Source: an uncultured Halothiobacillus sp.
GTDB lineage: Bacteria > Pseudomonadota > Gammaproteobacteria > Halothiobacillales > Halothiobacillaceae
DNA length: 64,000 nt
Direction: 5' to 3'
Assembly (NCBI GenBank): GCA_964655215.1
Contig: CAZZMW010000011.1
Location: 13,417-77,416, forward strand
The notes beneath the pieces are model-generated. The model saw nothing but the letters and a program-made list of their open reading frames with translations. It was not told the origin of the DNA and did no database searches. Both the position numbers and the translations under genes were made by a program. Shown here piece after piece: positions 2,026 to 56,401 of this stretch. Positions within the stretch are counted from its first letter, which is position 1; the number at the start of each line of letters is the position of its first letter.

Positions 2026-2102
<77 letters not shown>

Positions 2103-5542: not shown

Positions 5543-5762
5543 GGCAGCCGCAGCTTCCTTTGCCGGAAATTTGGATGGGGGGGCACGGAACGCTGCCATA
5601 GGAGCAGAAGACACAGCAATCACCCGGCTTAGGGCGTAGCAACTCGTGACATTGCGTGCATTCATAAAACCATTGGCAAGCGTCGGTAGGCATGGTTTCT
5701 TGTTGCGCAAAGCCGCAATGCGGACAGGTGAGAACGGAGGTTGTGATGATTGATTGCTCCAT
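5535..5762 (-). CDS. small Cys-rich protein with GDCCVxC motif (75 aa)
   Basis: MEQSIITTSVLTCPHCGF...CQWFYECTQCHELLRPKPGDCCVFCSYGSVPCPP...CGCHG (12 Cys). GAGGTGG SD lies 3 nt upstream of the ATG. The start is 16 nt after the cbbQ stop, and the stop overlaps the cbbO ATG by 8 nt (ATGGATAA). Confidence 0.6.
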   Translation of the reverse strand: MEQSIITTSVLTCPHCGFAQQETMPTDACQWFYECTQCHELLRPKPGDCCVFCSYGSVPCPPIQISGKGSCGCHG

Positions 5763-5778
5763 TTCCACCTCGAGTAGG

Positions 5779-6582
5779 TTAGGCAAAGGTTGTGTCGATC
5801 GCATGATCCAGTGTTTCACGGATGTCGACATCATCGGTGATTGGGCAAACCAGCGCCATGCGGCAAGCATCTTGTGGCGACACACCATCCTTGATCAGGG
5901 TTGCTGCATAGACAAGCAGACGGGTTGAAATACCTTCGTCGAGTCCGTGTCCTTTCAGATTGCGGGCCACGTTGCCGATTTTCACCAACTTGGCGACCGT
6001 ATCGGACGCCATGCCGGTTTCCTTGGCCACAATCTCGGTTTCAAGTGCTGCATCCGGATAATCGAAATCGAAGGCGGTAAAACGCTGCTTGGTGGATTGC
6101 TTCAAATCCTTCATCAAGGTCTGATAGCCGGGATTATAGGAAATCACCAACTGGAAATCAGGATGTGCGTGGATCAGTTCGCCCTTTTTGTCCAGTGGCA
6201 GGGTGCGGCGATGATCGGTCAGAGGATGAATAACCACCGTGGTGTCCTGTCGAGCTTCAACTACTTCATCGAGATAGCAGATGGCACCGATACGAGCGGC
6301 GGTAGTCAACGGGCCATCAAGCCAGCGCGTGCCACCTTCGTCAAGCAGGTAGCGACCCACGAGGTCTGAGGCCGTCATGTCTTCATTACACGCCACCGTG
6401 ATCAGCGGTTTGCCCAGCTTCCACGCCATGTATTCGACAAAACGGGATTTGCCACAGCCGGTCGGACCTTTAACCATAACAGGCAGATGATTGCGGTAGG
6501 CCGACTCATACAGCGCCACTTCGTTTTTCTGCTGTTGATAGAAAGGTTCATGCTGGATTTTGTATTGTTCTGTATCGGTCAT
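5779..6582 (-). CDS. cbbQ: RuBisCO activase AAA+ ATPase CbbQ (MoxR class)
   Basis: Walker A GPTGCGKS, 267 aa, typical CbbQ/NorQ sequence. Located between cbbM and cbbO. Confidence 0.9.
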   Translation of the reverse strand: MTDTEQYKIQHEPFYQQQKNEVALYESAYRNHLPVMVKGPTGCGKSRFVEYMAWKLGKPLITVACNEDMTASDLVGRYLLDEGGTRWLDGPLTTAARIGAICYLDEVVEARQDTTVVIHPLTDHRRTLPLDKKGELIHAHPDFQLVISYNPGYQTLMKDLKQSTKQRFTAFDFDYPDAALETEIVAKETGMASDTVAKLVKIGNVARNLKGHGLDEGISTRLLVYAATLIKDGVSPQDACRMALVCPITDDVDIRETLDHAIDTTFA

Positions 6583-6727
6583 GGCGTTGTTCCCTATCGA
6601 TTTGGCTCGGAAGATTGCCCCTGTATGGTCGTCCTGAGAGGGCGGTCAAGGGCGGTGGGACTGAAGAAGCAAGCTGGGCGATGCACACATCTCGGCATGT
6701 GCATGGCTCAGATGGCCATAAGTCAGG

Positions 6728-6757
6728 CGTAAAACACCCCCGGCGAACCGAGGGTGT
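6728..6757 (-). terminator. hairpin + U-tract just after cbbM (terminator or attenuator before cbbQ)
   Basis: On the minus strand, ACACCCTCGG-TTCG-CCGGGGGTGT (10-bp stem with one G-U and a tetraloop) is followed by TTTTAC. It lies about 20 nt after the cbbM stop. Confidence 0.6.
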
Positions 6758-6778
6758 GTGTCTTACGCTAGGCGTCGA

Positions 6779-8158
6779 TTACTTGTGGACGCCCAGTTTT
6801 TCGCGCCAGCCCGGATAGAGCTTGTCGGCGTCTTTCGGGAAGGATTCGAATGCACGCGCAAATTCTTTGTGCTCTTTAGCGTATTCGATCGGATCGGCAC
6901 CGGCTTTCCAGCACTCGTAGGATTGACGCAGAGAGATCGCGCCAGCCGCCGGGCTGTCGATGTGGCCGTAAGAACCACCACCTGCGGTGTTGATGACGTT
7001 GCCGTGGCCCAGGTTCTCGAAGAAGCCGGGCAGACGCAGTGCGTTCATGCCGCCGGAGATGATTGGCGTGGTGGGCTTCATGCCGTACCACTTTTGGAAG
7101 TACACCGGACCTTGCGCTTCGTCACGCTCAATCATGTACGCGATGTTGCGGTCGTCGCCTTCGCCTTCCATCTTGCCGTAGCCCATGGTGCCCACGTGGA
7201 TACCGGAAGCACCTTGCAGACGGGAGATCTTCGCCAGAACGAACGCGGTGTAACCACGCTTGGATGATGGAGAAGTGATCATGCCGTGACCGGCACGGTG
7301 GTAGTGCAGATACTGACTTGGGTATTGACGACGGGCCGTGGTGATCATGCCTGGGCCGCCAACGAAACCGTCGACGAGGAAGGCGAGTTTGTCGGCATCG
7401 GGACCGAATACTTCCAGTGCGTAATCGGCACGGGCCAGCATTTCATAATGGTCGTCAGCGGTGATGTTCATGGAGAACAACTTGGCTTGACCGGTTTCGT
7501 CTTGGGCACGTTTCATTGAGTCGTACACGAGCGGCAGAACTTTCTTCAGCGGGCAGAATACCTGGTTGCCTTGTGGTTCATCGTTCTTGATGAAGTCGCC
7601 ACCCAGCCAGAACTGGTATGCAGCAGCGGCAAATGGCTCAGGGCGCAGGCCCAGTTTCGGCTTGATGATGGTACCGGCAATGTAACCGCCGTTTTCGATC
7701 GGACGACCGAGGATGCGCCACAGGTTGGAGATGTCGGTGGCTGGGCCGTCGAACATCTGGATGCAACGCTCTGGAACATAGAAATCGATCATCTGACCGT
7801 ATTCGATGTCGCCCATGCCTTGGTTGTTACCGATAACCAGGGTCAGGAACGACACGATCATGAAGCGACCGTCAGTGACGTTGCGGTCGAACAGTTCGAT
7901 CGGATATGCAATGCGCATGTCTTCGGTGGCTTCATCGATGTGATAAACCAGCGCGTCAACACCTTTGGTGAAGTCGTCAGTGGTTGAAACTTCTACGTTG
8001 GTACCGGTTGAAGATTCAGCCGCGAAGTGAGCGGCGGCTTCGAGGTAACCGTGGCCTGCTTTTGGCTTCATTTTGTAGGCGACAAGAATGTGCTTGCCAC
8101 CGGCAATCAGATCTTCTTCTTTCAGGCTGAGGTCGGCGTAACGCGCGGATTGATCCAT
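6779..8158 (-). CDS. cbbM: RuBisCO form II large subunit
   Basis: 459 aa, collinear with Rhodospirillum rubrum CbbM as recalled ([54 protein letters not shown]-like). No small-subunit gene follows. Confidence 0.95.
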
Positions 8159-8283: not shown

Positions 8284-9186
8284 ATGCGCCGACTAACTTT
8301 GCGTCAATTGGTGGTCTTTGAGGCCGTGGCAAGACATCTGTCCTTCTCCAAGGCAGCGGCAGAACTTCACTTGAGCCAGCCCGGTGTTTCCATGCAGGTA
8401 CGTAAGATTGAATCATTCGTTGGGTTGCCACTCACGGAACAGGTCGGAAAACAAATCTTTCTGACCGAAGCGGGGCGAAATGTTCAGCATGCAGCCGGAA
8501 ACATATCAGCTCAGCTGACTGATCTTGGCAATGCCCTGGCGCGACTCAAAGGCGTTGAAGAGGGGCAATTGAATATTGCGGTGACCTCTACGGTGAATGC
8601 GGTGGCAACGGGAATCCTAGCCGGATTCCGTGGACGTTACCCTAAAGTGTCGATCCACCTTGAAGTATCCAACCGGGCCGAAGTGTTGAGTTTGTTGTCA
8701 GAAAACCGGATTGACCTAGCTATCATGGGGCAGGTTCCCGATGGTTTGGGTCTTGAGGCGACACAATTCATGGATAACCCGCTGGTTGTGATCGCACCGG
8801 TCGATCACCCCTGGGTCGGCCGGTCTGATATTCCGATCGCCGAACTTGCGAACGAATCCTTTCTCGTGCGAGAGGATGGCTCGGGTACACAGGGCGCTAT
8901 GGAGCGGTTCTTTTCAGCCAGAGAGTTGAAAATCCACAAAAGCATGCAAATGAACAGTAACGAGGCGATCAAAATGGCCGTTCAGGCCGGATTGGGCTTG
9001 GGGATCATCTCGAAACAGACATTGGAAATGGAGTTGATGCTCAAGCGTCTGGCCGTACTTTCTGTAGAAGGATTCCCGATCATGCGTCATTGGTTCATCG
9101 TTCACCGCAGTGACAAACTCCTCTCACCAGTTGCCTCGGCTTTCAAGACCTACCTATTGGCTGAGTCGGCCACCCTTGTGCAGTGA
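8284..9186 (+). CDS. cbbR: LysR-family regulator CbbR (divergent from cbbM)
   Basis: wHTH LRQLVVFEAVARHLSFSKAAAELHLSQPGVSMQVRKIES. Classical divergent arrangement with a 125-bp shared control region. Confidence 0.85.
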   Translation: MRRLTLRQLVVFEAVARHLSFSKAAAELHLSQPGVSMQVRKIESFVGLPLTEQVGKQIFLTEAGRNVQHAAGNISAQLTDLGNALARLKGVEEGQLNIAVTSTVNAVATGILAGFRGRYPKVSIHLEVSNRAEVLSLLSENRIDLAIMGQVPDGLGLEATQFMDNPLVVIAPVDHPWVGRSDIPIAELANESFLVREDGSGTQGAMERFFSARELKIHKSMQMNSNEAIKMAVQAGLGLGIISKQTLEMELMLKRLAVLSVEGFPIMRHWFIVHRSDKLLSPVASAFKTYLLAESATLVQ

Positions 9187-38428: not shown

Positions 38429-38443
38429 ATGTTCAGTTGGGTT

Positions 38444-43443: not shown

Positions 43444-44382
43444 TTATTTCAGATCTTCTTCATATCTTAAGATTTCAGCCGGTTTTGGCAAAATTGACTT
43501 GGCTGAATTGAGTACGAAATCGTGAAATGCTTGTGCAATGGGCGACATCCGCTTGCCCGTGCGATAAACCAGATACCATTTCTTCATGACCGGGAAGCCT
43601 TCGACATCGAGGATGGCAATCCGGTTCAGCGCCAGTTCCAATTCAAGCGCGTGCAGCGAGATGATCCCCAATCCCAACCCCGCCATGACGGAATGTTTGA
43701 CCGCTTCGTTTCGGCTCATTTCCATCGACGTGTTGAGTTGCATGTTGCGTTGTTCGAAGAAGTCTTCCACCGCGTTGCGCGTGCCTGAACCGCGCTCCCG
43801 AAGAATGAAGTTTTCTTCCATTAATCGACTGATGGGAATGTTCTTTTCCTTAGCCAAGGGGTGATCCGGGCGAGAAAAGACGACCAAAGGGTTGTTCATG
43901 AATTCCTGCGAACTCAATTCCAACGTATTGGGTGGTCGTCCCATGATCGCCATGTTTGGAATGTTTTCTTGCAACTCAACGAGAATCTCTTCGCGGTTCG
44001 TGACCTCAAGGTGGACTTTCGTGCCCGGGTGAAGCTTTACGAACTCAGCAAGGAGATACGGCGCAAAATATTTGCCTGTACTGGTGACGGAGAGTGACAA
44101 GTTGCCGCGTTTCACACCCTTCAAGTCATCAAAGACCGATTCAATGTCGCGAACCTGCTGCGCGATGCCGCGACTGAATTCGTACATTTCCTTTCCTGCT
44201 TCAGTCAGGTAGATCTTTTTTCCCAGTTGCTCGAAGAGCGGCAGGCCGACTTCTTGCTCCAGCTGTTTTATTTGAGTCGATACCGCGGGCTGAGTTAAGT
44301 GAAGCTCTTCAGATGCGCGTGTATAGCTGGCATTCCGGGCAACTGACTCCAATAAGCGCAGCTGGCGAAAGGTTATTTTCAT
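43444..44382 (-). CDS. LysR-family regulator, CbbR-like paralog 3 (divergent from csoS2)
   Basis: wHTH FRQLRLLESVARNASYTRASEELHLTQPAVSTQIKQLEQ. Shares a 148-bp control region with the carboxysome operon. Confidence 0.85.
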   Translation of the reverse strand: MKITFRQLRLLESVARNASYTRASEELHLTQPAVSTQIKQLEQEVGLPLFEQLGKKIYLTEAGKEMYEFSRGIAQQVRDIESVFDDLKGVKRGNLSLSVTSTGKYFAPYLLAEFVKLHPGTKVHLEVTNREEILVELQENIPNMAIMGRPPNTLELSSQEFMNNPLVVFSRPDHPLAKEKNIPISRLMEENFILRERGSGTRNAVEDFFEQRNMQLNTSMEMSRNEAVKHSVMAGLGLGIISLHALELELALNRIAILDVEGFPVMKKWYLVYRTGKRMSPIAQAFHDFVLNSAKSILPKPAEILRYEEDLK

Positions 44383-44530
44383 TGGCTTTTTCTTTGGTTG
44401 TTTAAGAATTCGTTCATTAGGTTTTCTGGATGATTACGGTAATTATTATTAATTATCAATATTGGTTCAGCCTCCGTATATTCCAAATCAAGGGCGGGTT
44501 CTGTGGACGCCCAATCCTAATGATTAACAG

Positions 44531-46399
44531 ATGAGCATAAGGAATCAATCCATGAACCAAGATAGTACAAGCACGAACTCAGAGAAACTCTCTAACCGTG
44601 ATGCCGCGTTGGCCCGGAGAAGAGCCCTGTCTCTTTACGGTAAAAAAGGCCTGCCAGCAGGCGAAGCAACGCGTAAACCCACCCCAAGCGCCAAGCCGAC
44701 CAGTGCCAGCAAGGTAGCAGAAACGTCTTCTGCTCCGGCACCCACGCCGGTTGCGACTCAGAACACCAGCACAGCTCCTGCTGGTGCCGAACCGCATGTT
44801 TGCAATTGCGGGACTCAAGCGACACACGAAGTCAAAACGACCGTGCTCGTATCCAATCCTGCCCCGATTTCCGCAGCACAGCAACGCCGGATCAATCAAT
44901 CGCTGCGTGGACGTGGGAACAATCCCCCGGCACGTCCTTGCGGCCGTGTCCCGCAGAAGGTCAATTTCGGCACAACGCTATCAGGCGCCCAGGTCAGCGG
45001 TAGTCAGCTTGAGCGGTCTGCTGTCACTACAGGCAACGAGTCCGGCAGCTGCCGCACGATCACCGGCACCGAGTACATCGGGGCGGAGCAATATAACGAG
45101 TTTTGCGGCACGAAACCATCACCATCTCCAGCGAAGGTCAGTTCGAGCAGCACAAGCCGCGGTGGCCGTGTAACGGGCACCGAGATTGGTCGCAGCCAGA
45201 AGGTTTCAGGTGACGAAACGGGCACTTGCTCACGCGTTACCGGGACCGAATATCTGGCCGCCGAACAAACCCGTACATTCTGTGGCACATCACCCGAGCC
45301 GCATCATGAAAAATCCGGCTTCGGCATGACTGCTCTGAAGAACAAGGTAAGCGGCACTGATTTGAATCGTGGCGTCGAGGTAACTGGCGGGGAAACCGGT
45401 GCGAACCGTGTCATCACCGGTAGCGATTACACCGATACCACCGCGTTGCGCCGTAAAACCGACGCTGCGCCGAAGAAAGTTGAAATCACCCACACCAGTG
45501 CGGGTGGCACAGTCAGCGGAACCGTCGTCGGTCGCTCTGCGAAAGTATCCGGTTCTGAGAAAGGTGCGTGCGAACGCATTACCGGCTCCGATTATTTGAG
45601 TAGCGAGGAATTCTCTTCCTTTTGCCGTGAGCAGCCGTATCAGCCGCCTGCGAAAGTAGGTGTATCACCCACACTCAACGGCCAAAACGTATCAGGTACG
45701 CAGCTGGGCCGCTCATACAGCGTGACTGGCGATGAATACGGCGCATGCAAACCCGTAACCGGCTCGTCCTATATCGGCGCGGATCAATACGCCGAGTTTT
45801 GCGCAGACCGAGAAGTCACTGAAGCGAGTAACCGTATGCAGCGTGCTCAGTACGTGATTCCGGCGAGTCGCCAATCGACGAACTCCACCGATGCGTCTAC
45901 GGATTCTGTTCGTAAAACTCAGTGTGGCGGCTTTTCAATCGTCTCACCTGCGCACTCGTCTCAAGACGCTGCCCAGCGGATTACCGGCAGTGCCTATGGT
46001 GGTACCGATCGAATCACCGGGTCACTCGCACGGGCCACCGGCAAGGTTTCCGGTACGCCTGAATTTCGTTACCGCGATGGCGTTCAATCCTCTGGTGAAG
46101 CCATGACAGAGGAGGCAAAGGAACGCGGCCCGGAGCGCATTACCGGTGACGGTCGCGAACGCAACGTCACAGGCGATGCCTGGGATCGTGGCGACCGAGT
46201 CACCGGTACTGAAGGTTTGTCGGCTGCACGTCGCAACCCGACCTGGCGTGGCGAGATGCGCCCTAGCGGTCCATCACGCAGTGCACGGGAATTCCGCAAG
46301 GCTGAACAGCCGGAAGCCAAGCCAAGTCGTGTCACGGGTTGCAGCGGCAGCAGCATGACGGGTGCCGCTGTCACGATGTCTGGCGGCGCGCGCGGCTAA
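44531..46399 (+). CDS. csoS2: carboxysome scaffold protein CsoS2 (start 44531 or 44552)
   Basis: N-terminal basic R..ALARRRALS..GKKG peptide. Repeated VSG....GR...V(T/S)G.E.G.C..(I/V)TG(T/S)(E/D)Y...E...FC middle repeats. C-terminal (R)ITG/VTG repeats. Followed by csoSCA. Confidence 0.9.
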   Translation: MSIRNQSMNQDSTSTNSEKLSNRDAALARRRALSLYGKKGLPAGEATRKPTPSAKPTSASKVAETSSAPAPTPVATQNTSTAPAGAEPHVCNCGTQATHEVKTTVLVSNPAPISAAQQRRINQSLRGRGNNPPARPCGRVPQKVNFGTTLSGAQVSGSQLERSAVTTGNESGSCRTITGTEYIGAEQYNEFCGTKPSPSPAKVSSSSTSRGGRVTGTEIGRSQKVSGDETGTCSRVTGTEYLAAEQTRTFCGTSPEPHHEKSGFGMTALKNKVSGTDLNRGVEVTGGETGANRVITGSDYTDTTALRRKTDAAPKKVEITHTSAGGTVSGTVVGRSAKVSGSEKGACERITGSDYLSSEEFSSFCREQPYQPPAKVGVSPTLNGQNVSGTQLGRSYSVTGDEYGACKPVTGSSYIGADQYAEFCADREVTEASNRMQRAQYVIPASRQSTNSTDASTDSVRKTQCGGFSIVSPAHSSQDAAQRITGSAYGGTDRITGSLARATGKVSGTPEFRYRDGVQSSGEAMTEEAKERGPERITGDGRERNVTGDAWDRGDRVTGTEGLSAARRNPTWRGEMRPSGPSRSAREFRKAEQPEAKPSRVTGCSGSSMTGAAVTMSGGARG

Positions 46400-46423
46400 C
46401 CAATTGATATTACGGAGCCCATT

Positions 46424-48010
46424 ATGGATACCCGCCATCGCCTGAAATGTCAGCCTAAGCCGAGAGCCCCGATCGGGTTGGCGACAACCGTTCGAGCAGA
46501 GACTGTCCAGCACAGTAGCATCCCGAGCTGGCCTCAGCGAGTCAGTTTCTGCCCGCCGGGTTTCGCCCAAGATCGAGACGGTGAGTGTGTCAGCACGCAG
46601 TGTGCTCCAGGCGCTCATCCTCTGGCTGACTTGAAGCAGAACGAGCGTCTTGCTGAGTATGAATGCCTTGTGAAAGCAAGCTTTTCAGACATCGTGCCGA
46701 CACTGAAGCAGATTGCTGCACTGCGGCAAGAGGCTGATTTCGAAACCCGCGCGCAGGAAATTGCACGTGTGCGTCTGGGCATCGATCTGGATGGGTCGGT
46801 TCTGGCCAATGCCTGGATCGCTCCGCTTGATATGAAAAAGCTCTACGGCAGCAGTGTGCTGAAGACGTTCTGCAAGCTGGCACAGGAAGATGTCCTGCAA
46901 CAAGACGGTTGCACCGAGGCCGAGGAAGTTATCCGCTTCTTCATCGAATGCGGCTTCCATGAAGTGAATGTCAGTGCCTGCGCTGATGGTCGGCTCAAAG
47001 GATTCATTAATTACATCCTGCGCCTGCCTCAGGAAGCGGTACCCCGGCATCAGTTCTACGCGGGCACGTCGTTCGATGTCGAGGTGAACGTCAAGCAGTG
47101 GACGGCGACGGAGTTGCGTCGTTTCCGAGAAGGTTTGCCGACGACCACTGATTCGGGAACCCGGTATCTCAAGATCGCTGCGTACCACTTCAGCGGTTCA
47201 GATCCTGACCATGAAGGGTGTGCCGCTCACGGGAGTTCGGATGCCAAGGCCATGCAGGCAGCGCTTGATCGGTTGCGTGCATTCAGCACAGCGATTCAAA
47301 ACGGGTTCTGCTGCGGGGCTTCGGTCGCCACGCTGTTGATTGGTGTAGACACTGACAACGATGCCATTCGTATTCATGTGCCTGATGCCAATGGCGACAT
47401 CAGTCTGGATTGCTACATCGACAACATGGCCTTGTATCAAGAGACGGCTCAACTGACCAAGCTCGAAGCACAGTGGAAACTGAATGCCATTGTTGAGGAA
47501 ACCGCGCGTCGGTTCCAACGGAGTGCGCCTGAAACAGGCATGCGTCGTCTGATCAAGCAGTTGCTTACCAACAACTTGTCCCAGATCGACTACGTCTGTC
47601 AGTACCACAACGGTCGTTATGAGGATATTGGCCACGCCGAGCGATTCATCAGTGTCGGTGACGGTTTTGAAGAAGTTCATTTACGCAACCTTGCCTACTT
47701 CAGCTTCATGCAGACGTTGGAAGAAGGGGCGGCGGACATGGACGTCGGTATCAAGATCTTCACTCGGTTGAACATCGCCAAGGGTTTGCCCGTACCGGTA
47801 GCCATTCACTACCGATACGACGACCAAGTGCCGGGCGCGAGAGAGCGGGCAGTGGCACGTTGCCATCGGGTCAAGGCAGCCATCGCGGCGCGCTATCCGG
47901 ATCTGATGCACGAGGGGTTGCTGGTTTTCGGCATGAGCGTGCAGGCAGAACAGTCCGGTAGCGCACTGGAAACCGTGTCAGATAACGACCAAAACAACCA
48001 GGCGCATTGA
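46424..48010 (+). CDS. csoSCA: carboxysomal carbonic anhydrase CsoSCA (CsoS3)
   Basis: VSACADGRLKG and YHFSGSDPDHEGCAAHGS Zn-ligand blocks. Collinear with the Halothiobacillus CsoSCA sequence as recalled. Confidence 0.92.
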   Translation: MDTRHRLKCQPKPRAPIGLATTVRAETVQHSSIPSWPQRVSFCPPGFAQDRDGECVSTQCAPGAHPLADLKQNERLAEYECLVKASFSDIVPTLKQIAALRQEADFETRAQEIARVRLGIDLDGSVLANAWIAPLDMKKLYGSSVLKTFCKLAQEDVLQQDGCTEAEEVIRFFIECGFHEVNVSACADGRLKGFINYILRLPQEAVPRHQFYAGTSFDVEVNVKQWTATELRRFREGLPTTTDSGTRYLKIAAYHFSGSDPDHEGCAAHGSSDAKAMQAALDRLRAFSTAIQNGFCCGASVATLLIGVDTDNDAIRIHVPDANGDISLDCYIDNMALYQETAQLTKLEAQWKLNAIVEETARRFQRSAPETGMRRLIKQLLTNNLSQIDYVCQYHNGRYEDIGHAERFISVGDGFEEVHLRNLAYFSFMQTLEEGAADMDVGIKIFTRLNIAKGLPVPVAIHYRYDDQVPGARERAVARCHRVKAAIAARYPDLMHEGLLVFGMSVQAEQSGSALETVSDNDQNNQAH

Positions 48011-48020
48011 GGGTTATGAA

Positions 48021-48272
48021 ATGAAAATCATGCGAGTGGAAAAAACGCTTGTTTCGACCAACCGCGTCCGTGAACTGGGTCACCGTCCTTTGCTGGTGGT
48101 TCGCGAAAAGAACGGTGGAACGCCCAGTGTCGCAGTCGACGCCATTGGTTGCATCCCGGGGGATTGGGTCATCTGTGTTGGAAGCTCCGCTGCACGCGAG
48201 GCTGCGGGTAGCAAGGAGTTCCCGAGTGACCTGACGATCGTTGGAATCATTGATCACTGGCAGGAGAGTTGA
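48021..48272 (+). CDS. csoS4A: carboxysome vertex (pentamer) protein CsoS4A
   Basis: 83-aa EutN/CcmL-type sequence in the canonical position. Confidence 0.88.
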   Translation: MKIMRVEKTLVSTNRVRELGHRPLLVVREKNGGTPSVAVDAIGCIPGDWVICVGSSAAREAAGSKEFPSDLTIVGIIDHWQES

Positions 48273-48273
48273 G

Positions 48274-48555
48274 ATGGAAATCATGTGTGTCATTTCCGAT
48301 CTGGTCGCATCACGCCGGATCCCTGGGCTCTCCAGCAGCTCGCTTCGGGTGCTTGCAGATATGAAAGGGAAGATCTCGGTGGCCGTCGATCCTGTCGGTG
48401 TGCCTGCGGGCAAATGGGTTTTTACCGCCGGGGGATCTGCTGCGCGAATCGCCACGGGCGACAAGAGCATCCTCACGGACTTAACCATATGCGGAATTAT
48501 CGATAACTGGAGTGCGGAGGAAACCATCATTAAAGCTTCTGAGAATGTTAATTAA
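48274..48555 (+). CDS. csoS4B: carboxysome vertex (pentamer) protein CsoS4B
   Basis: EutN/CcmL-type paralog. The ATG lies 1 nt after the csoS4A stop. Confidence 0.85.
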   Translation: MEIMCVISDLVASRRIPGLSSSSLRVLADMKGKISVAVDPVGVPAGKWVFTAGGSAARIATGDKSILTDLTICGIIDNWSAEETIIKASENVN

Positions 48556-48566
48556 CACTTTGTTTT

Positions 48567-49194
48567 TTAGGAGAAATAAAATGGCTACAGGTATTACAGG
48601 TATTGCTCTGGGCATGATTGAAACCCGCGGTCTGGTTCCTGCGATTGAAGCAGCGGACGCGATGACCAAAGCGGCAGAAGTTCGTCTGGTCGGTCGTCAG
48701 TTTGTCGGCGGCGGTTACGTCACCGTTCTGGTCCGTGGCGAAACCGGTGCGGTCAATGCGGCGGTTCGTGCCGGTGCCGATGCGTGCGAGCGCGTAGGTG
48801 ACGGTCTGGTTGCGGCGCACATCATTGCGCGCGTGCACAGCGAAGTTGAAAGCATTTTGCAGAACACCACTGCAGCTGCTTGATTTACTGAAATTAATTA
48901 CGTTTAGGTTAGGAGAAAGAAATGGCTACAGGTATTACAGGTATTGCTCTGGGCATGATTGAAACCCGCGGTCTGGTTCCTGCGATTGAAGCAGCGGACG
49001 CGATGACCAAAGCGGCAGAAGTTCGTCTGGTCGGTCGTCAGTTTGTCGGCGGCGGTTACGTCACCGTTCTGGTCCGTGGCGAAACCGGTGCGGTCAATGC
49101 GGCGGTTCGTGCTGGTGCCGATGCGTGCGAGCGCGTAGGTGACGGTCTGGTCGCTGCTCACATCATTGCGCGCGTGCACAGTGAAGTCGAGAGC
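48567..49194 (+). repeat. tandem duplication (341-bp period) comprising SD + csoS1
   Basis: The first 191 nt of the two ORFs are identical by direct comparison. A few synonymous or neighbouring changes follow, and the SD TTAGGAGAAA is shared. Confidence 0.9.
48581..48883 (+). CDS. csoS1: carboxysome shell hexamer protein CsoS1 (BMC-H), copy 1
   Basis: MATGITGIALGMIETRGLVPAIEAADAMTKAAEVRLVG... is the canonical BMC domain. TAGGAG SD. Confidence 0.93.
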   Translation: MATGITGIALGMIETRGLVPAIEAADAMTKAAEVRLVGRQFVGGGYVTVLVRGETGAVNAAVRAGADACERVGDGLVAAHIIARVHSEVESILQNTTAAA

Positions 49195-49254
49195 GTACTG
49201 TCTGCTGAAGGCAACGCCATCAACTGCACTATGATGAATCAAGCCATTCTCTAA
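48922..49254 (+). CDS. csoS1: carboxysome shell hexamer protein CsoS1 (BMC-H), copy 2, with C-terminal extension
   Basis: Same BMC domain with about 12 extra C-terminal residues (CsoS1B-like). Confidence 0.93.
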   Translation: MATGITGIALGMIETRGLVPAIEAADAMTKAAEVRLVGRQFVGGGYVTVLVRGETGAVNAAVRAGADACERVGDGLVAAHIIARVHSEVESVLSAEGNAINCTMMNQAIL

Positions 49255-49288
49255 GAATTACTGATTGTCGTTCTAGGGGTAGTGGTGG

Positions 49289-49345
49289 CAGGACATTGGA
49301 TACCGGGCTGACTGAAAGGTCGCGGTATCTGATCGATATGTCCTG
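49289..49345 (+). promoter_or_regulatory. nested hairpin between shell genes and accessory genes
   Basis: Outer arms CAGGACAT/ATGTCCTG and inner arms GATACCG/CGGTATC. No U-tract follows. Confidence 0.3.
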
Positions 49346-49394
49346 AATGATATGTAAGTACTGTCCGTATCACGAGGCACCGAGGAGCACAATT

Positions 49395-49667
49395 ATGCAG
49401 GAACATGACAATCCGATCCCCGATTGGACCAGGCAAGATTTGCCACCGATGTTGAGTCGACGATTCGAATTCGAAAGCTATTCCGCGACTCGCGCTTTTC
49501 TGGATAACGTCGCGAAAATTGCCGAAGAGGCAAAGAATTATCCGAATCTGAGCTTTGGCAAGACTTATGTCAGCGTCACATTGGACGAGGGCGGAAGCAA
49601 AATTGGCCCCGAATCGGTGGCGTTGGCTCAGAAGATCGACGCACTCGTCTCGAATGAAGGCAAGTAG
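49395..49667 (+). CDS. pterin-4a-carbinolamine dehydratase-like protein (acRAF-type RuBisCO assembly factor candidate)
   Basis: PCD fold pattern (F.F.S...A..F...VA..AE...H.P.L...Y..V.V.L) in the position this gene occupies in alpha-carboxysome loci. Confidence 0.7.
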   Translation: MQEHDNPIPDWTRQDLPPMLSRRFEFESYSATRAFLDNVAKIAEEAKNYPNLSFGKTYVSVTLDEGGSKIGPESVALAQKIDALVSNEGK

Positions 49668-49671
49668 TGCC

Positions 49672-50313
49672 ATGAGTAGTAGCTTGCGCGTTGCCATTGT
49701 GAACCAGAAGGGCGGGACGGGGAAAACGACCTTATCCGTCAACCTAGGCGCCGGATTCAGTCAACGCGGCACCACCGTGTTGCTGGATGCTGATCCACAA
49801 GAATCAGCCGGTCACTGGGCAAGAGTCAGCGGCAACGACGGCGACCTGCCACACATCGAAGGCGTTGTGGCGGGCGAGGTGCGTGAACGCATCCAGCATC
49901 TATCCGCTACACACCGGTATGTGCTCATCGACTGCCCGCCGCATCTGGATTCGGACATCCTGCGTCGTGTTCTGTCTTTCGTGGATATGGTCTTGATTCC
50001 AATACAGCCTTCCCCTCTGGATGTGTGGGCAAGTATTGGCATGGCGGGCGCCGTGCAGGATGCGCGTGTTAGCAATCCTGATCTGCGTGCGTACATGGTT
50101 CTCAATCAACAGGATCACCGCAACGCACTTTCGCGATCCATGCATGAGGCACTGGCTGATTTCGAAATCCCGGTGCTCAAAAACGGCCTGGCGCGTCGTG
50201 CCGCTTTCCGAAGTGCTGCACTGGAAGGCTGTAGTGTTTACCGACTTGGCAAACGCGGTTCCAGTGCCGTGAACGACATAGAAGCAATTATTGAAGAGGT
50301 TTTAGACTTATGA
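49672..50313 (+). CDS. mcdA: ParA-type ATPase, carboxysome positioning McdA-like
   Basis: Walker A NQKGGTGKTT, 213 aa. Carboxysome-locus context, followed by an overlapping small disordered ORF. Confidence 0.8.
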   Translation: MSSSLRVAIVNQKGGTGKTTLSVNLGAGFSQRGTTVLLDADPQESAGHWARVSGNDGDLPHIEGVVAGEVRERIQHLSATHRYVLIDCPPHLDSDILRRVLSFVDMVLIPIQPSPLDVWASIGMAGAVQDARVSNPDLRAYMVLNQQDHRNALSRSMHEALADFEIPVLKNGLARRAAFRSAALEGCSVYRLGKRGSSAVNDIEAIIEEVLDL

Positions 50314-50513
50314 CGACAGTAAGCAACAAACTGACGGCCGGACTCGACAAGGTTCGCGACACCAAACCAACCGAGGCGCCGGCAATTGAAAAAAACACTC
50401 AACCAAAGTCCCCGGTACGTCGCAAACCGGAGCAACCCAAATCGAGTGGAACCCAGACCGCGGATGTCGTGCAGAAGCAAATCATCCCAGCCGCTCGCGT
50501 TTGGCCGGATTGA
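50310..50513 (+). CDS. mcdB: small disordered protein, McdB-like
   Basis: ATGA overlap with mcdA. 67 aa, rich in K/P/T/Q/E with no hydrophobic core. The only Trp is in the C-terminal ...RVWPD. Confidence 0.55.
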   Translation: MTTVSNKLTAGLDKVRDTKPTEAPAIEKNTQPKSPVRRKPEQPKSSGTQTADVVQKQIIPAARVWPD

Positions 50514-50838: not shown

Positions 50839-51786
50839 ATGACACAGGAACTTGCCACGCTATCTAGGAAACTCCTAAGACATGCTTCGTTGCGGCAAAT
50901 AGAGGTTTTCGAATCGGTAGCACGACTCGAAAGCTTTACCCGTGCCGCGGCTGAATTGAACTTGACCCAACCGAGTGTATCGGCGCAAGTCAAAAGCCTC
51001 TCGGAGGTCGTAGGGCTGGATTTGTATGAACAGATCGGCCGTCGCATCTATCTGACCGAGGCTGGGCAAATCGTGTTACGCGGCTGCCGCGAGGCAATGG
51101 ATGCGCTAGCTAATATCGAAATGTCGCTGAATGACTTGAAAGGGTTACGCAAGGGGAGGTTGCGGCTTTCGGTCATTACCACCGCCAAATATTTCGCCCC
51201 GGTCGCCCTGGGTTATTTTGCGGAACAATATCCGGACATCGAACTGGAACTGATCATTTCCAACCGGGATACCCTGATGAGCCGGATCGAGGCAAATGCC
51301 TCGGATCTCTACATCATGGGGCAGGTGCCGCAAAGCCGGATTGATCTTGAGGTGATACCCTTTGCGCCCAACCCCTTGCTGGTAATCGCCCACCGCAGCC
51401 ATCCACTTGCAAATGCACGGAACATTCCGCTCAGTAGGATCGCAGAAGAATCCTTCATCATGCGAGAACCCGGTTCCGGGATTCGGCATAAGACGGAAGA
51501 GCTGTTTGCGCGCCACGGGTTGTCGATCAAGACTCGCCTCGTGCTCGATGGCAATGAAGCGATCAAGCATGCGGTAGTCGGGAAGTTGGGTCTGGCTGTG
51601 GTCTCCGAGCACGCTCTTAATATTGAAGGCGTCGGTGGACCGCTGGTGAAACTTGATGTTCAAGGATTTCCGTTGGAAAGTTGCTGGAACATCGTGTACC
51701 CAAAAGGCAAGGCACTTTCCGTGCTGGCGCGCAAATTTCTGTCCTTTTTGAAAATACACGGCGGCGATTATCTTAAAATTGGTTGA
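50839..51786 (+). CDS. LysR-family regulator, CbbR-like paralog 4 (upstream of dabBA)
   Basis: wHTH LRQIEVFESVARLESFTRAAAELNLTQPSVSAQVKSLSE. Confidence 0.85.
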   Translation: MTQELATLSRKLLRHASLRQIEVFESVARLESFTRAAAELNLTQPSVSAQVKSLSEVVGLDLYEQIGRRIYLTEAGQIVLRGCREAMDALANIEMSLNDLKGLRKGRLRLSVITTAKYFAPVALGYFAEQYPDIELELIISNRDTLMSRIEANASDLYIMGQVPQSRIDLEVIPFAPNPLLVIAHRSHPLANARNIPLSRIAEESFIMREPGSGIRHKTEELFARHGLSIKTRLVLDGNEAIKHAVVGKLGLAVVSEHALNIEGVGGPLVKLDVQGFPLESCWNIVYPKGKALSVLARKFLSFLKIHGGDYLKIG

Positions 51787-51822
51787 AAACCATTATTTGG
51801 ATAACGCGCTCAAAACCAATCG

Positions 51823-52260: not shown

Positions 52261-53934
52261 ATGACCGCAGAACTGTTGGCCAAGGCTACTGGGCTGATGT
52301 TACTGGCCATGCCGGTGACAATGCTCGCTTTCTCGCTTCCGAGTGCCCGCACGGGTGTGGATGCCGCCCTGATTTATCGTCGGCGTGTGGCATCAGCAAC
52401 CTTAATCGCGTTTGTACTCGCCCTAGTGTCTGTGCTGATGTATGCCTTCGGGTCGCGCAGTGATGTATTCATGCCGACGATACCTTTGCCCGGCTTAGAT
52501 AGAAGCATCGATCTGCATGTCTCCATTGCCGTCAATGGTATGACCCTATTGTTGGCTTCGCTGGTCAGTTTTGTATTGATGATCATCGCGCGATTCAGCA
52601 TTCAGTATCTCGATGGTGATCCGCACCAGGCGCGTTTTTTCCGTTTGTTAGGGTTCACCGGCGGCTGGTTTCTGTTGGTTGTTATTGCCGGGAACATGGC
52701 ATTGTTTACATTCGCGATCCTGATCACCGGTTTTACTCTACATCGGTTGCTGGGGTTTTATTCTGAGCGGCCCCGCGCCATCATGGTCACGCACAAGAAA
52801 TCGATTTTCAGCCGCACGGCAGATGCGCTGTTGATGATCGCCACGGTGCTAATCGGCCTGCAAGTCGGCAGTCTGGAGTTCTCGGCGATTACCGCCTTTG
52901 TGCATACCCACGACCAGTTGCCTCTGGCAATGCATGTGGCCGCCTGGATGATCGTTCTGGCCGCCATTCTCAAGAGCGCCCAGTTTCCCTTTCATGGTTG
53001 GCTGATCCAGGTCATGGAAGCGCCGACACCGGTTTCGGCACTGATGCATGCCGGCATCGTCTATAGCGGGGCGATCATCGTACTTCGTACCAGCAACCTC
53101 TTGGTTGCTGACGGGTATGCCCACGTTCTGTTGGCCGTCGTGGGCCTGACCACGCTGATCATCGCCTCGCTTGTCATGTTGACCCAGTCAGCCATCAAGT
53201 CGTCACTGGCCTGGTCCACGGCTGCGCAGCTGGGTTTTATGTTGCTGGAACTCGGCCTTGGCCTGTTCGCTCTCGGGTTGCTGCACCTCGTGGGCCACTC
53301 GTTATACAAGGCACATGCATTTCTGTCTTCGGGTGGAATTGCCGATCAACTGCGCCAGCCCAAGATTTTCAAATATCGCCCTGTTTCCCTTGCGGCGTGG
53401 ATGGTCACCTTCCTGGGTAGCCTGGTAATCGTTCTAGGCTTGGTCATCGGCATGGGGTTGAGCTTGCGAGATGAACCCACGCTGCTGGCCTTGGTCGTCA
53501 TCATCGCGCTGGCTACCGCGCAACTGGTGCTCAAGGTACTAAGCTACGGCACCGGCGGGGAGGTGGTGACGGCTATTGTGACTGCGACGGCCATGTCTGC
53601 GATCTACTTTGTCTTGCATGCGTTGTTCATGCACGGTTTTGCCCAGGAATTGGCACCGCTGCCCACCAAGGTATCACCCCTGAACTTGGGCCTGATCGTG
53701 TTGACTATAGCCGGATTCGTCGCCGTGGCCTGGTTGCAGGGGCCGGGCCGTGAACGGATGGCGCGCAGCAGTCAGACGGCCTTGTTCATCCACTTGTATA
53801 ACGGGTTATACGTCGATCGTTGGGTAGAGCGTTTGTCCTATCGTTTGTGGCCGGAAAAAGTAGGGCGCATGACCCGGATGCCGGATGCTGAATTATCTCG
53901 AAAGTCCCGTTGTACCAACGATACCCAAGTCTGA
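52261..53934 (+). CDS. dabB: DabB, NuoL/MnhA-like proton-conducting membrane subunit of the DAB inorganic-carbon pump
   Basis: 557-aa polytopic protein with the NuoL/Mrp antiporter core (FPFHGWL..AMEAPTPVSALMHAG). Immediately followed by the DUF2309 gene. Confidence 0.85.
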   Translation: MTAELLAKATGLMLLAMPVTMLAFSLPSARTGVDAALIYRRRVASATLIAFVLALVSVLMYAFGSRSDVFMPTIPLPGLDRSIDLHVSIAVNGMTLLLASLVSFVLMIIARFSIQYLDGDPHQARFFRLLGFTGGWFLLVVIAGNMALFTFAILITGFTLHRLLGFYSERPRAIMVTHKKSIFSRTADALLMIATVLIGLQVGSLEFSAITAFVHTHDQLPLAMHVAAWMIVLAAILKSAQFPFHGWLIQVMEAPTPVSALMHAGIVYSGAIIVLRTSNLLVADGYAHVLLAVVGLTTLIIASLVMLTQSAIKSSLAWSTAAQLGFMLLELGLGLFALGLLHLVGHSLYKAHAFLSSGGIADQLRQPKIFKYRPVSLAAWMVTFLGSLVIVLGLVIGMGLSLRDEPTLLALVVIIALATAQLVLKVLSYGTGGEVVTAIVTATAMSAIYFVLHALFMHGFAQELAPLPTKVSPLNLGLIVLTIAGFVAVAWLQGPGRERMARSSQTALFIHLYNGLYVDRWVERLSYRLWPEKVGRMTRMPDAELSRKSRCTNDTQV

Positions 53935-53965
53935 GCCCAGCTCGTGAATCGCTAAGGAATCCATA

Positions 53966-56401
53966 ATGAGTACCTCAACGCACACATCTTCACGTCAAAA
54001 CCCGCAGGCTCTTTTGTCACTGATCGAGGAAACCTGTCGTAAAATCGCGCCGGTCTGGCCGCTGGATTCCTTCGTGGCCGTCAATCCCTATCTTGGACTG
54101 ATCGATCGGCCTTTCACGGAAGTCGGAAACTATCTGGCCGAAACCACTGGCGAATACCTGTACATGGACCGTGCGTGGTTCGCCAAGAAAATCATCACGG
54201 GTGCGATCAAGGCTTCGGATCTGACCGAGGCCGCCAATCAGCTCAAGTGTGATATCAGTGTCAACACCATCAAGCAGGCGGCACAGGTCGAACCGACCCC
54301 GAAGAAGCCGCTTCCGCTGCTGGCCCTGGAACTTAACCGTCGTGATGCACCGCCGTTTCTTGCTTTCGTCATTGATCAGATCAGCGGATATCTGGCAGCG
54401 CATTATGACCGTGGGCAGGCGCTCTGGCACATGCCTTCAGAGGCGGAAAAGAGACTGTATTCGTCATGGCGGCAATACACCCTGATCGACCGTTCGTCCG
54501 GCGCGGCCGGTCTCAAAGGGGTGCGAAAGAACCTGCTTACCGTTCCAGAACATTCGGAAGATGCCCTGAGTTGGGCGCTGGCTCAAATCGATTTACCCGA
54601 AGAACAGTTGGCCGATTACTTGTTTGCCACGCTTAAATCAATTGGTGGCTGGGCGAGCTACTGCCGTTATCTGCTCTGGCAGGCTGAGCTTCAGGGCGAG
54701 AAAAATCACGACTTGCGTGATCTGATGGTCATTCGACTGGTTTGGGATGCCCTGATCCTGATGGAGATGGACGAGCCGACACGTCAACGGTGGCGGCTGA
54801 AAATGGCTGAATGGCAGCGCCAGCGCCATGCCGATACAACCGCCGAAGATGCGCCTATCGACGATATCCTCCTGACGGCAGCTGAAATCGCCTTTCGTCG
54901 TCAGGTGGTTAGCGGTCTGAAGTCTGACCGCGCGGATGTACCCGCCAAACTACCGGAGGTACAGGCGGCTTTTTGCATTGATGTGCGCTCAGAAGTCTTC
55001 CGACGGCATCTGGAAGCCTGTATGCCCAATCTGGAAACCATCGGCTTTGCCGGGTTCTTCGGAGTGCCGGTTGAATATTGCCGCCTCGACGAGTCCTACA
55101 CCCGATCCCACACGCCGGTTCTGCTCAAGCCGGTTCTTCGCGCCCAACAAGTGTGCGACGAGGCCATTGCTGAACGGCAACACGCGCGCTTGAGCCGGTC
55201 TGCCACCTGGAAGCAGTTCAAACTCTCGGCGGCATCCTGTTTCACCTTTGTTGAGTCAGCAGGGCTGAGTTATGTGCCACGATTGCTTGCCGATACCTTG
55301 GGCTGGCACCGGCCATCCTTGCCACCTGATGAGGCAGGTCTGACGGCCAAGGAGCGCTCCCAGCTTCATCCGGTGTTGATTGGTGCCAATGGCGGCGCGC
55401 TTTGCGAACAGGAAAAAATCAAACTGGCAGAAGGCATGCTGCGCGGACTCGGATTGATTGATCGGTTCGCCCCCATCGTCCTGCTGGCAGGGCATGGCAC
55501 TTCTACCACTAACAACCCGCATCGTGCGGGTCTGGATTGCGGTGCCTGCGCTGGGCAGACAGGGGAAGTCAGTGCGCGGGTGGCCGCGTCGCTGCTCAAC
55601 GAACCCGCTGTACGGCTCGGACTGGCCGCCACGGGTATTCACATTCCGCGGGATACCCGATTTATCGCTGCGCTTCACGATACCACCACGGATCAGGTGT
55701 CCCTACTTGATGTGCCGACAACAAATGTTGATCCGGCAATTCTGAAAGCGGTCACGCAAGCGATGGAACAGGCCGGTGAACTGACTCGACTTGAACGGCT
55801 GGTCTCACTGGACAAGCAGATTGATCGACAGTCGGCGGCGCGCCATGTCATTCATCGTGGCCGTGATTGGTCGCAGGTGCGGCCAGAATGGGGTCTGGCC
55901 GGCAATGGCGCATTCATAGCGGCGCCACGATGGCGTACCAGAGGTCTCGATTTGCGCGGACGTGCATTCCTGCATGATTATGATTGGCGCAAAGATCACG
56001 ATTTTGGTGTTTTGACCCTGATCATGACCGCGCCGCTCGTGGTTGCCAGTTGGATCAACCTGCAGTATTACGGTTCCACCGTCGATAATGAACGGCTGGG
56101 CTGTGGCAACAAAGTCTTGCACAACGTTGTGGGCGGGCTGGTCGGTGTACTCGAAGGCAATAGTGGCGATCTGCGGATCGGCCTGTCGTTGCAATCCCTG
56201 CATAACGGCGAAACCTGGAGACATGAGCCACTGCGGTTGAACGCGTTCATCGAAGCCCCCACCGATGCGCTGGATCGAACCATTCAAGATCACCCCATGC
56301 TGCGCCAACTGGTGGACAATCACTGGTTGAACCTATGTCAGATTGACGAGAGAGGAGGGGTCAAACGTCGGTTTGCCAATGGTAATTGGCGCGAAGAATA
56401 A
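53966..56401 (+). CDS. dabA: DabA (DUF2309), beta-carbonic-anhydrase-like subunit of the DAB pump
   Basis: 811 aa. FCIDVRSE (C337, D339) and GHGTSTTNNPHRAGLDCGAC (H510, C525). Confidence 0.9.
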   Translation: MSTSTHTSSRQNPQALLSLIEETCRKIAPVWPLDSFVAVNPYLGLIDRPFTEVGNYLAETTGEYLYMDRAWFAKKIITGAIKASDLTEAANQLKCDISVNTIKQAAQVEPTPKKPLPLLALELNRRDAPPFLAFVIDQISGYLAAHYDRGQALWHMPSEAEKRLYSSWRQYTLIDRSSGAAGLKGVRKNLLTVPEHSEDALSWALAQIDLPEEQLADYLFATLKSIGGWASYCRYLLWQAELQGEKNHDLRDLMVIRLVWDALILMEMDEPTRQRWRLKMAEWQRQRHADTTAEDAPIDDILLTAAEIAFRRQVVSGLKSDRADVPAKLPEVQAAFCIDVRSEVFRRHLEACMPNLETIGFAGFFGVPVEYCRLDESYTRSHTPVLLKPVLRAQQVCDEAIAERQHARLSRSATWKQFKLSAASCFTFVESAGLSYVPRLLADTLGWHRPSLPPDEAGLTAKERSQLHPVLIGANGGALCEQEKIKLAEGMLRGLGLIDRFAPIVLLAGHGTSTTNNPHRAGLDCGACAGQTGEVSARVAASLLNEPAVRLGLAATGIHIPRDTRFIAALHDTTTDQVSLLDVPTTNVDPAILKAVTQAMEQAGELTRLERLVSLDKQIDRQSAARHVIHRGRDWSQVRPEWGLAGNGAFIAAPRWRTRGLDLRGRAFLHDYDWRKDHDFGVLTLIMTAPLVVASWINLQYYGSTVDNERLGCGNKVLHNVVGGLVGVLEGNSGDLRIGLSLQSLHNGETWRHEPLRLNAFIEAPTDALDRTIQDHPMLRQLVDNHWLNLCQIDERGGVKRRFANGNWREE

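Follow-up and report, generated by a model that had tools for sequence, protein, structure and literature searches.

Where is the RuBisCO of a carboxysome whose operon contains no RuBisCO genes? This question is raised by a 64,000-nucleotide stretch of DNA from an uncultured Halothiobacillus sp. (contig CAZZMW010000011.1), hereafter called the window. In this window an alpha-carboxysome (cso) locus at 44383-50513 starts with csoS2. The canonical operon of Halothiobacillus neapolitanus has the order cbbL-cbbS-csoS2-csoSCA-csoS4AB-csoS1CAB, followed by csoS1D, acRAF, mcdAB, cbbOQ and DAB1. The initial annotation had offered two explanations: a split locus whose form IA enzyme is encoded elsewhere, for which it took the retained acRAF-like gene as an argument, or an unusual cargo relationship with form II RuBisCO. 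The first is strongly supported, since all five related Halothiobacillus lineages carry genes of a form IAq cassette and the window has kept an orphan CbbR. By parsimony, the genome of the window very probably holds form IA cbbL and cbbS elsewhere, because every related lineage with a RuBisCO-less operon has form IA cassette genes at another place.

A complete carboxysome locus without form I RuBisCO genes

The locus encodes the CsoS2 scaffold, CsoSCA, CsoS4 pentamers and CsoS1 hexamers together and is complete as judged with Pfam and NCBIfam (Table 1). Matches to the models for CsoSCA, CsoS4 and CsoS1 (TIGR02701, TIGR02703, PF03319 and NF053791) were all above the curated cut-offs. When CsoS4A was used as a tblastn query, it matched 48274-48513 in the csoS4B region with 46% identity. 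The typical cbbL-cbbS operon head is not present, and csoS2 comes straight after the divergent promoter. In tblastn searches of the 64 kb, neither the window's own CbbM nor, at E<=10, the CbbL and CbbS of Thiobacillus detected a form I large or small subunit. The tblastn and profile matches agree with the initial description of the locus, in which csoS2 is the first gene, a LysR gene is divergent from it, and cbbL and cbbS occur nowhere in the window. The sole RuBisCO of the window is form II cbbM with cbbQ and cbbO, 36 kb away, as had also been described.

Related genomes carry a form IAq cassette apart from the carboxysome locus

When CbbS of the nearest cassette-bearing contig was used as the query, the retrieved proteins were those that NCBI names Halothiobacillus sp. 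Several Halothiobacillus metagenome-assembled genomes (MAGs) have contigs with cbbM-cbbQ-cbbO and, further along, a CbbR gene divergent from cbbL-cbbS-cbbQ-cbbO. Contig L123, of the sister-species type, has a different arrangement. Around 1296-1512, gap-arsJ is followed by a terminator hairpin and the conserved CbbR operator AATAGAAAATATCGACTGTTATTGAT, then by cbbL-cbbS-cbbQ-cbbO, with no cbbR alongside. The junction between arsJ and cbbL was confirmed by the consecutive accessions MGD9500169-171 (CbbS, CbbL and ArsJ). Four contigs with ArsJ homologues (L128-L131) had no cbbL after arsJ. Relocation of the cassette thus seems recent and lineage-specific, because L130, whose ArsJ is 95% identical, is without the junction. 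The relocated cassette of L123 is, by its sequence, the apparent complement of the orphan CbbR of the window.

Co-occurrence of the cso locus and the cassette was judged by exact-sequence look-ups and by shared runs of protein accessions, where one run was taken as one MAG. In five MAGs of the sister species, CsoSCA and the csoS2-divergent regulator (LysR_44) of contig L001 were in the same accession series as cassette proteins. These series are cso MDD3575389/391 with cassette MDD3576336-338; cso MDD4967081/083 with cassette MDD4967196-198; cso MGD9500567/569 with cassette MGD9500169-171, where ArsJ comes next after CbbL; cso MDY0146958/960 with cassette MDY0147568-570; and cso MGE4356156 with MGE4356212 and MGE4356216. 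The CbbL accessions of L123 occurred in four of the five series, together with CbbS and CbbQ1; the fifth (MGE4356...) had only CbbO1 and ArsJ. Proteins of the cso locus and of the cassette were also in the same accession runs in the more distant lineages L002/LH_M7, L003/SMAG_U14078, L004/KUB_Bin10 and L005/35-54-62 (24-54-40). Resolved by lineage, cbbL or cbbS was seen in the sister species, L002 and L003, and at least cbbQ1 in L004 and L005.

The CbbS of the cassette has a six-residue N-terminal insertion, which appears as a 6-residue gap when aligned with CbbS of H. neapolitanus, and its best match in the PDB was the IAq enzyme of T. tepidum (9iqo). Such an insertion defines form IAq (PMC12216891). 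With the CbbS insertion and with cbbQ and cbbO after cbbS, the cassette of the relatives is form IAq.

Every form I match found in related Halothiobacillus genomes was such an IAq cassette with cbbQ and cbbO. This result speaks against a second, canonical cbbL-cbbS-csoS2 operon of the H. neapolitanus type elsewhere in the genome, which would supply the packaged RuBisCO and leave the window locus as an auxiliary, transferred shell operon. No CsoS2 or CsoSCA of the canonical type from these MAGs was among the clusters that were read, with no specific search made for them. What favours a second operon is that the host is very near H. neapolitanus, which has the canonical operon: the form II CbbR proteins share 96% identity, and at the 90% level the ArsJ proteins of L123 and H. 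neapolitanus cluster together. In addition, our scan for CsoS2 relatives, with one genome per species, used peptide patterns from the window CsoS2 alone, which a divergent second copy could escape. On balance we consider a second operon improbable.

The regulator of the cassette has stayed beside the form II cluster

A LysR gene at 2312-3214 adjoins the 3' end of cbbO in the window. Its product is 81-83% identical to the LysR divergent from cbbL in Thiobacillus. A metagenome scan with this protein gave 80 loci. Among orthologues of at least 64% identity with upstream DNA, the order was cbbO-cbbQ-cbbS-cbbL with CbbR divergent from cbbL in nearly every locus. L030 was the exception and has the window layout. 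In L099, a more distant locus (61%), the gene adjoins cbbM instead. In relatives L044, L057, L058, L060, L111 and L118, cbbO-cbbQ-cbbS-cbbL with its divergent CbbR is followed by cbbO-cbbQ-cbbM with its own divergent CbbR. This is the window layout plus the form IA cassette.

At the site where the cassette would be expected, the window has a tRNA-Met gene, and the DNA upstream of CbbR does not align with the cbbL-cbbR operator that is conserved in relatives. We therefore call this gene an orphan CbbR. In L030 (93% identical in protein, about 85% in nucleotides) the layout is a GGDEF gene, tRNA-Met, CbbR and cbbO, as in the window. When the two orphan genes were compared, the ratio dN/dS (omega) was 0.04 at a dS of 0.8, which indicates strong purifying selection despite the loss of the divergent target.

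A search for the reciprocal junction upstream of the GGDEF gene of L030 gave only an amino-acid decarboxylase fragment and galE. A simple inversion with arsJ/uvrD was rejected on this ground.

Four CbbR-like LysR paralogues are encoded within the 64 kb (2312-3214, 8284-9186, 43444-44382 and 50839-51786), and they are 41-47% identical to each other. Each seems to serve a target of its own: the form IA cassette (absent here), the form II cluster, the cso operon or the DAB pump.

CsoS2 keeps a binding motif for form IA enzymes

The initial annotation had noted that only about two basic N-terminal peptides are recognizable in this CsoS2. Both are at the positions claimed. The first, RDAALARRRALSLYGK (nt 44597-44644), is an exact fit to the published consensus RxxxxxRRxxxxxxGK. 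The second (nt 44873-44917) is partial and retains only RR...G[RK]. Four M-repeats were detected by a strict regular expression, with additional [VIL][ST]G triads, and the C-terminus is conserved. Alignment to the CsoS2B structures of H. neapolitanus spans the middle and C-terminal regions.

Two peptides flanking a CxC motif are common to all CsoS2 of this lineage, including that of Thiobacillus thioparus. Because this architecture is shared throughout the lineage, the two-peptide CsoS2 is a lineage trait and no sign of lost or altered cargo binding. Decay of the N-terminal domain or its adaptation to another cargo was ruled out for the same reason.

The basic N-terminal peptide of CsoS2 binds only the L8S8 form IA enzyme (10.1101/708164; PMC10614612). 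We compared the cassette proteins with the list of CsoS2 contact residues in 10.1101/708164. CbbL of the cassette aligned without gaps to that of H. neapolitanus, and all five contacts (D26, D69, Y72, F346 and D360) were kept, which makes binding of the CsoS2 peptide to the IAq enzyme plausible. At the contact positions of CbbS, the cassette protein has F for Y96, so that the aromatic residue is kept, and N for D94. N and F occupy these two positions in all Halothiobacillus IAq cassettes (P0001-P0007 and P0554), whereas Thiobacillus L009 has D and F. N94 and F96 of CbbS may have co-evolved with the two-peptide CsoS2. The N-terminal RuBisCO-binding motif of CsoSCA was not usable as a test, because beyond H. 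neapolitanus and strain LS2 no consensus is described for it (PMC10614612).

The CxC motif lies at nt 44801-44812 (residues 84-87 of 615). It is CNCG in the window and CGCQH in Thiobacillus. It is conserved throughout the Thiobacillus-type CsoS2 lineage and has no counterpart in the aligned N-terminal domain of H. neapolitanus. Could it be a redox or metal site?

The form II enzyme is ordinary

Form II RuBisCO has no small subunit. The CbbM of the window (459 aa) is an ordinary form II enzyme. It shares 98.7% identity with the CbbM of a sister MAG and about 90% with betaproteobacterial CbbM. Across Thiobacillus and Halothiobacillus the identity is 90-99%, and no targeting sequence has been added. 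CbbQ is an AAA+ protein with weak matches to the GvpN/CobS families of NCBIfam and was named after the cbbQ homologues in relatives. The name cbbO was given from position and from 79-92% identity to cbbO of relatives.

These data bear on another explanation, that the form IA enzyme has been lost altogether. The carboxysome would then take up CbbM, the form II enzyme, by some other route, or would be a RuBisCO-free carbonic-anhydrase compartment. Neither cbbL nor cbbS is present in the 64 kb, and the cassette is missing from its ancestral site beside its CbbR in both the window and L030, as such a loss would predict. However, the sister species with the same cso locus has the cassette elsewhere. 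The orphan CbbR, acRAF (omega 0.28 when compared with L001) and the exact, L8S8-specific CsoS2 motif have all been maintained. A form II cargo is further opposed by the ordinary nature of CbbM. Form II enzymes have not kept the residues that contact CsoS2 (10.1101/708164), and our search of 8 million papers turned up no report of a natural form II carboxysome. The same search gave nothing specific that describes these Halothiobacillus MAGs. The form II cargo relationship of the initial annotation thus finds no support: the L8S8-requiring motif is intact and conserved, and the two-peptide N-terminus is shared with T. thioparus. We regard complete loss as a shade less likely even than a second canonical operon. 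If true, the deletion beside the orphan CbbR would be the remnant of the cassette, and no earlier alpha-carboxysome in nature would be known to lack form I RuBisCO.

The locus is conserved between genera and under selection

The junction of LysR_44 with the divergent csoS2 was the same in 27 independent assemblies of Halothiobacillus and Thiobacillaceae. The order csoS2-csoSCA-csoS4AB-csoS1(n)-acRAF-parA next to it was found in five Halothiobacillus MAGs (CsoS2 72-93% identical). It was also found in more than 20 assemblies of Thiobacillaceae and other betaproteobacteria (CsoS2 about 50-56% identical), including T. thioparus DSM 505. A comparison with the cso loci of relatives had been proposed in the initial annotation, and it shows the same csoS2-first layout in both groups. 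LysR_44 shares 70-77% identity with its positional counterpart in Thiobacillaceae loci and 87-96% with that in Halothiobacillus MAGs, and its omega is 0.05-0.07. The acRAF gene keeps its place in the loci of Halothiobacillus and of Thiobacillus (60-92% identity), and the order with an mcdA-like gene after it is kept in relatives. The McdB-like open reading frame is conserved in L001 and L002, with an omega of about 0.1. LysR_50 is 93-97% identical in L001, L002 and L004.

The conserved ATG of csoS2 is at 44552, in agreement with the database gene call of 615 aa. An upstream ATG at 44531 (622 aa) is not conserved in relatives. The divergence of csoS2 and LysR was thus described correctly, and the spacer of 148 bp was not; it is 169 bp from the conserved ATG. 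In this leader (44383-44551) Halothiobacillus and Thiobacillus share three conserved elements: the A/T-rich block ACGGTAATTATTATTAATTATCAAT, a TATA(T/G)T box and the ribosome-binding site AAGGA. A GGGCG-N11-CGCCC hairpin at 44492-44512 lies between the -10-like box and the ribosome-binding site. Its position is kept in Halothiobacillus, with a GGGC...GCCC counterpart in Thiobacillus, and its role may be in attenuation or stability. A scan with Rfam gave tRNA as the only match, with none for the hairpin.

The closest relative, L001, represents a sister species (90.8% nucleotide identity; CsoS2 93%). The only part of the window common to the other Halothiobacillus species L001-L005 is a 13-kb block at about 43330-56400, from the LysR gene to dabA. 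Homology starts at the 3' end of LysR and stops after dabA, and both flanks are unrelated between species. The GC content is 54-57% in the island (44-50 kb) versus 46-48% in the upstream flank (36-44 kb). The nearest genomes are Halothiobacillus sp., not Thiobacillaceae. However, the cso genes, the cbbM cluster and the IAq regulator are closest to betaproteobacterial sequences, though the host is near H. neapolitanus. The pattern fits a mobile or repeatedly rearranged 13-kb island for CO2 concentration, exchanged between Thiobacillaceae and Halothiobacillus.

Between species at a dS of 0.2-2, omega was 0.01-0.15 for most cso, mcd and dab genes. Values were higher, and still below 1, for acRAF (as given above) and for the CsoS2 N-terminal domain (0.13-0.33). 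The comparisons of cbbO with L030 and of acRAF with L002 are excluded from these figures. As judged by these ratios, all cso, mcd and dab genes are under purifying selection.

Could the operon be a decaying relic of horizontal transfer that makes no organelle? The GC difference from the upstream flank would agree with this, and so would Thiobacillus denitrificans, which has the same locus type and has never been seen making carboxysomes (PMC9164163, PMC2570492). However, 11 of 11 genes are intact, omega does not exceed 0.33 even where it is highest (acRAF and the N-terminal domain of CsoS2), operator and leader have been conserved, and T. thioparus, with the same locus type, makes polyhedral bodies (PMC9164163). 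A relic is highly unlikely. An assembly error at about 44.4 kb that removed cbbLS, which the initial annotation had named as a possible cause and for which nothing speaks beyond the unusual gene order, can be excluded because the 27 assemblies share the junction, a Logan contig of run SRR12989705 is 100% identical over it, and the intergenic sequence is conserved base by base between genera.

A probable split locus with the cargo genes elsewhere

A split locus is the reading that we prefer. The island would be a functional alpha-carboxysome and CO2-concentrating unit of the Thiobacillus type, which probably never carried RuBisCO genes in this lineage. Its cargo would be the form IA (IAq-type) RuBisCO from a separate chromosomal cbbL-cbbS-cbbQ-cbbO cassette. 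In the sub-lineage of the window the cassette appears to have been cut from its regulator, and the orphan CbbR was left beside the form II cluster.

At low CO2, LysR_44 would activate the genes from csoS2 to mcdB, and LysR_50 would activate the DAB pump. The orphan CbbR would probably drive the cassette in trans on the retained operator. Shell genes and cargo genes would thus answer to separate regulators. The IAq enzyme would be assembled with the aid of acRAF, condensed by CsoS2 through the N-terminal peptide, enclosed in the shell and positioned by McdAB. CbbM would stay in the cytosol as the enzyme for high CO2 or low O2. Gene content, layout, selection, the orphan regulator and the cassette in sister genomes are observed directly, whereas regulation in trans, IAq packaging and the division of labour we infer from the families involved. 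A CO2-responsive division of labour is the expected logic for such a set of several RuBisCO enzymes (PMC9164163, PMC12175532). If the carboxysomes are filled, the IAq enzyme must be the cargo, because every form I enzyme found in the clade is IAq.

Several points weigh against a split locus of this kind. The cbbL and cbbS of the window's own genome were not seen, and the search of that genome covered the 64-kb window, which is part of an 88,507-bp contig of an unannotated NCBI MAG. Linkage by accession runs assumes that one run is one MAG, and MAGs can be contaminated. Among the contigs shown for the nearest CbbS clusters, none came from JGI metagenome 3300000233, which holds the exact CbbM of the strain; this is a weak point. 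In an experiment, carboxysomes of H. neapolitanus did not take up the non-carboxysomal IAq CbbL of T. crunogena (PMC2570492), and in Halothiobacillus IAq CbbS the D94N substitution falls on the position of a salt bridge with CsoS2. The lack of observed carboxysomes in T. denitrificans, mentioned above, counts here too.

Comparison with known systems

An atypical type of cso locus, in which cbbLS are separate from csoS1-4, is known from T. denitrificans and T. thioparus and was described as a trait of Thiobacillaceae in a 2022 review (PMC9164163). In T. denitrificans the RuBisCO-less arrangement had been recognized already in 2003-2008 (PMC2570492). The window locus, with a full set of csoS1, csoS2, csoSCA and csoS4 and no adjacent cbbLS, is of this type. 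It is orthologous with the Thiobacillaceae loci and not an analogous gene loss, because the divergent LysR is 70-77% identical, the N-terminal architecture of CsoS2 is the same and the intergenic region is homologous. The kind is thus already known; what is added is the host genus Halothiobacillus and an extra split of the regulator from the cargo genes.

Like the loci of Thiobacillaceae, the window locus starts with csoS2 and a divergent LysR, has the same order through acRAF and parA (CsoS2 50-56% identical), carries two basic CsoS2 peptides around CxC, and has a homologous operator and leader. In both groups form IA cbbLS-cbbQ/cbbO and form II cbbM-cbbQ/cbbO each have their own CbbR. The differences are as follows. 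The host is a gammaproteobacterial Halothiobacillus. In Thiobacillaceae cbbLS is 2.6-21 kb from cso, whereas the window has none within 44 kb upstream or 14 kb downstream. The sub-lineage of the window has the cbbLS cassette split from its own CbbR. The DAB pump and the second LysR come after the cso locus in the window and before it in Thiobacillaceae.

From csoS2 on, the window has the same families in the same order as H. neapolitanus, and the consensus of the CsoS2 N-terminal peptide and the C-terminus align. In contrast to H. neapolitanus, the operon lacks the cbbLS head and has a dedicated divergent LysR. CsoS2 has 615 aa, two N-terminal peptides and fewer M-repeats, compared with 869 aa and four N-terminal peptides in H. 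neapolitanus. The two proteins align only in pieces, and the window CsoS2 is clearly nearer the Thiobacillus type. H. neapolitanus has csoS1D, whereas a tandem-BMC (CsoS1D-like) gene was not seen in the window between csoS1 and acRAF (49254-49347) or elsewhere in the locus, with no dedicated model search made.

The relatives also resemble Hydrogenovibrio marinus and H. crunogenus: they have an IAq and a form II cassette, side by side in the relatives, and both cassettes include CbbQ/CbbO and have a divergent CbbR. In Hydrogenovibrio a dedicated IAc copy inside the cso operon is carboxysomal and the IAq enzyme is cytosolic, whereas IAq is the only form I found in the Halothiobacillus clade. IAq is normally termed non-carboxysomal, yet it is the sole form I type found in these genomes.

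The RuBisCO-less island occurs in Halothiobacillus species only a few percent from H. neapolitanus, the model organism for alpha-carboxysomes. Together they offer a matched natural pair for the study of cargo specificity: a CsoS2 with two N-terminal peptides and IAq versus one with four N-terminal peptides and IAc. The island is self-contained, with regulator, scaffold, carbonic anhydrase, shell, acRAF, McdAB, second regulator and DAB pump, and its chromosomal neighbourhood differs in each species. The clade is also suited to the question of how a cell co-ordinates shell and cargo from separate regulons, here with one regulator detached from its target. This would be useful for carboxysome engineering; the general picture of carboxysomes is unchanged.

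Features of the window

The features discussed are collected in Table 1. The 67-aa open reading frame at the end of the locus is a candidate McdB, named from the features of alpha-McdB (small, disordered, with a C-terminal tryptophan).

Table 1. Positions in the window of the carboxysome locus, the form II cluster, the regulators and the rearrangement junction
Feature	Position	Strand	Evidence or remark
tRNA-Met at the expected site of the cbbL cassette (rearrangement junction)	2026..2102	+	ARAGORN and Rfam
Orphan CbbR, adjoining the cbbO 3' end	2312..3214	+	Orthologue of the regulator that elsewhere is divergent from cbbL-cbbS-cbbQ-cbbO
cbbM-cbbQ-cbbO, form II RuBisCO and activase	3272..8158	-	cbbM 6779-8158, NF010002 E 8e-274
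CbbR of the form II cluster (LysR_8284), divergent from cbbM	8284..9186	+	96% identical to H. neapolitanus c2 WP_012823968.1
LysR_44, CbbR-like LysR regulator	43444..44382	-	PF00126 and PF03466; best NCBIfam match CbbR; divergent from csoS2
Divergent promoter/operator region and csoS2 5' leader	44383..44551	.	Blocks conserved between Halothiobacillus and Thiobacillus
csoS2, 615 aa	44552..46399	+	PF12288 E 2e-121; H. neapolitanus CsoS2B structures E 4e-107
csoSCA, carboxysome shell carbonic anhydrase	46424..48010	+	TIGR02701 E 4e-187; three Pfam CsoSCA domains
csoS4A, pentameric vertex protein	48021..48272	+	TIGR02703 E 3e-48
csoS4B, second vertex protein, EutN/CcmL-type	48274..48555	+	PF03319; gene call, identical Logan contig L132; GGAG before ATG
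csoS1 copy 1, hexameric shell protein	48581..48883	+	NF053791 E 4e-55 from residue 24 of the long open reading frame; AGGAG before ATG
csoS1 copy 2	48922..49254	+	NF053791 E 4e-55
acRAF-like, pterin-4a-carbinolamine-dehydratase (PCD)-like protein	49347..49667	+	PF01329 E 5e-9; scores below the NCBIfam thresholds of true PCD enzymes
mcdA-like ParA ATPase (carboxysome positioning)	49672..50313	+	NF041546 E 2e-56
McdB-like small disordered protein, 67 aa	50310..50513	+	Ends ...ARVWPD; ATG overlaps the mcdA stop
LysR_50, second CbbR-like LysR regulator, upstream of the DAB pump	50839..51786	+	PF00126 and PF03466
dabB-dabA, inorganic-carbon pump	52261..56401	+	PF00361/PF00662 (DabB); PF10070 (DabA) E 1.5e-260

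The number of tandem csoS1 copies varied between loci. There are two in the window (48581-49254) and in L002, five in L001 (14026-15731), and two to four in Thiobacillus-type loci.

Three tandem DUF2173 genes were found at about 36600-38430, by gene calls on the identical contig L132. They are flanked by a cytochrome c oxidase cluster and by a group of M90 peptidase, Rrf2, hemerythrin and NnrS genes, and are unrelated to the carboxysome finding.

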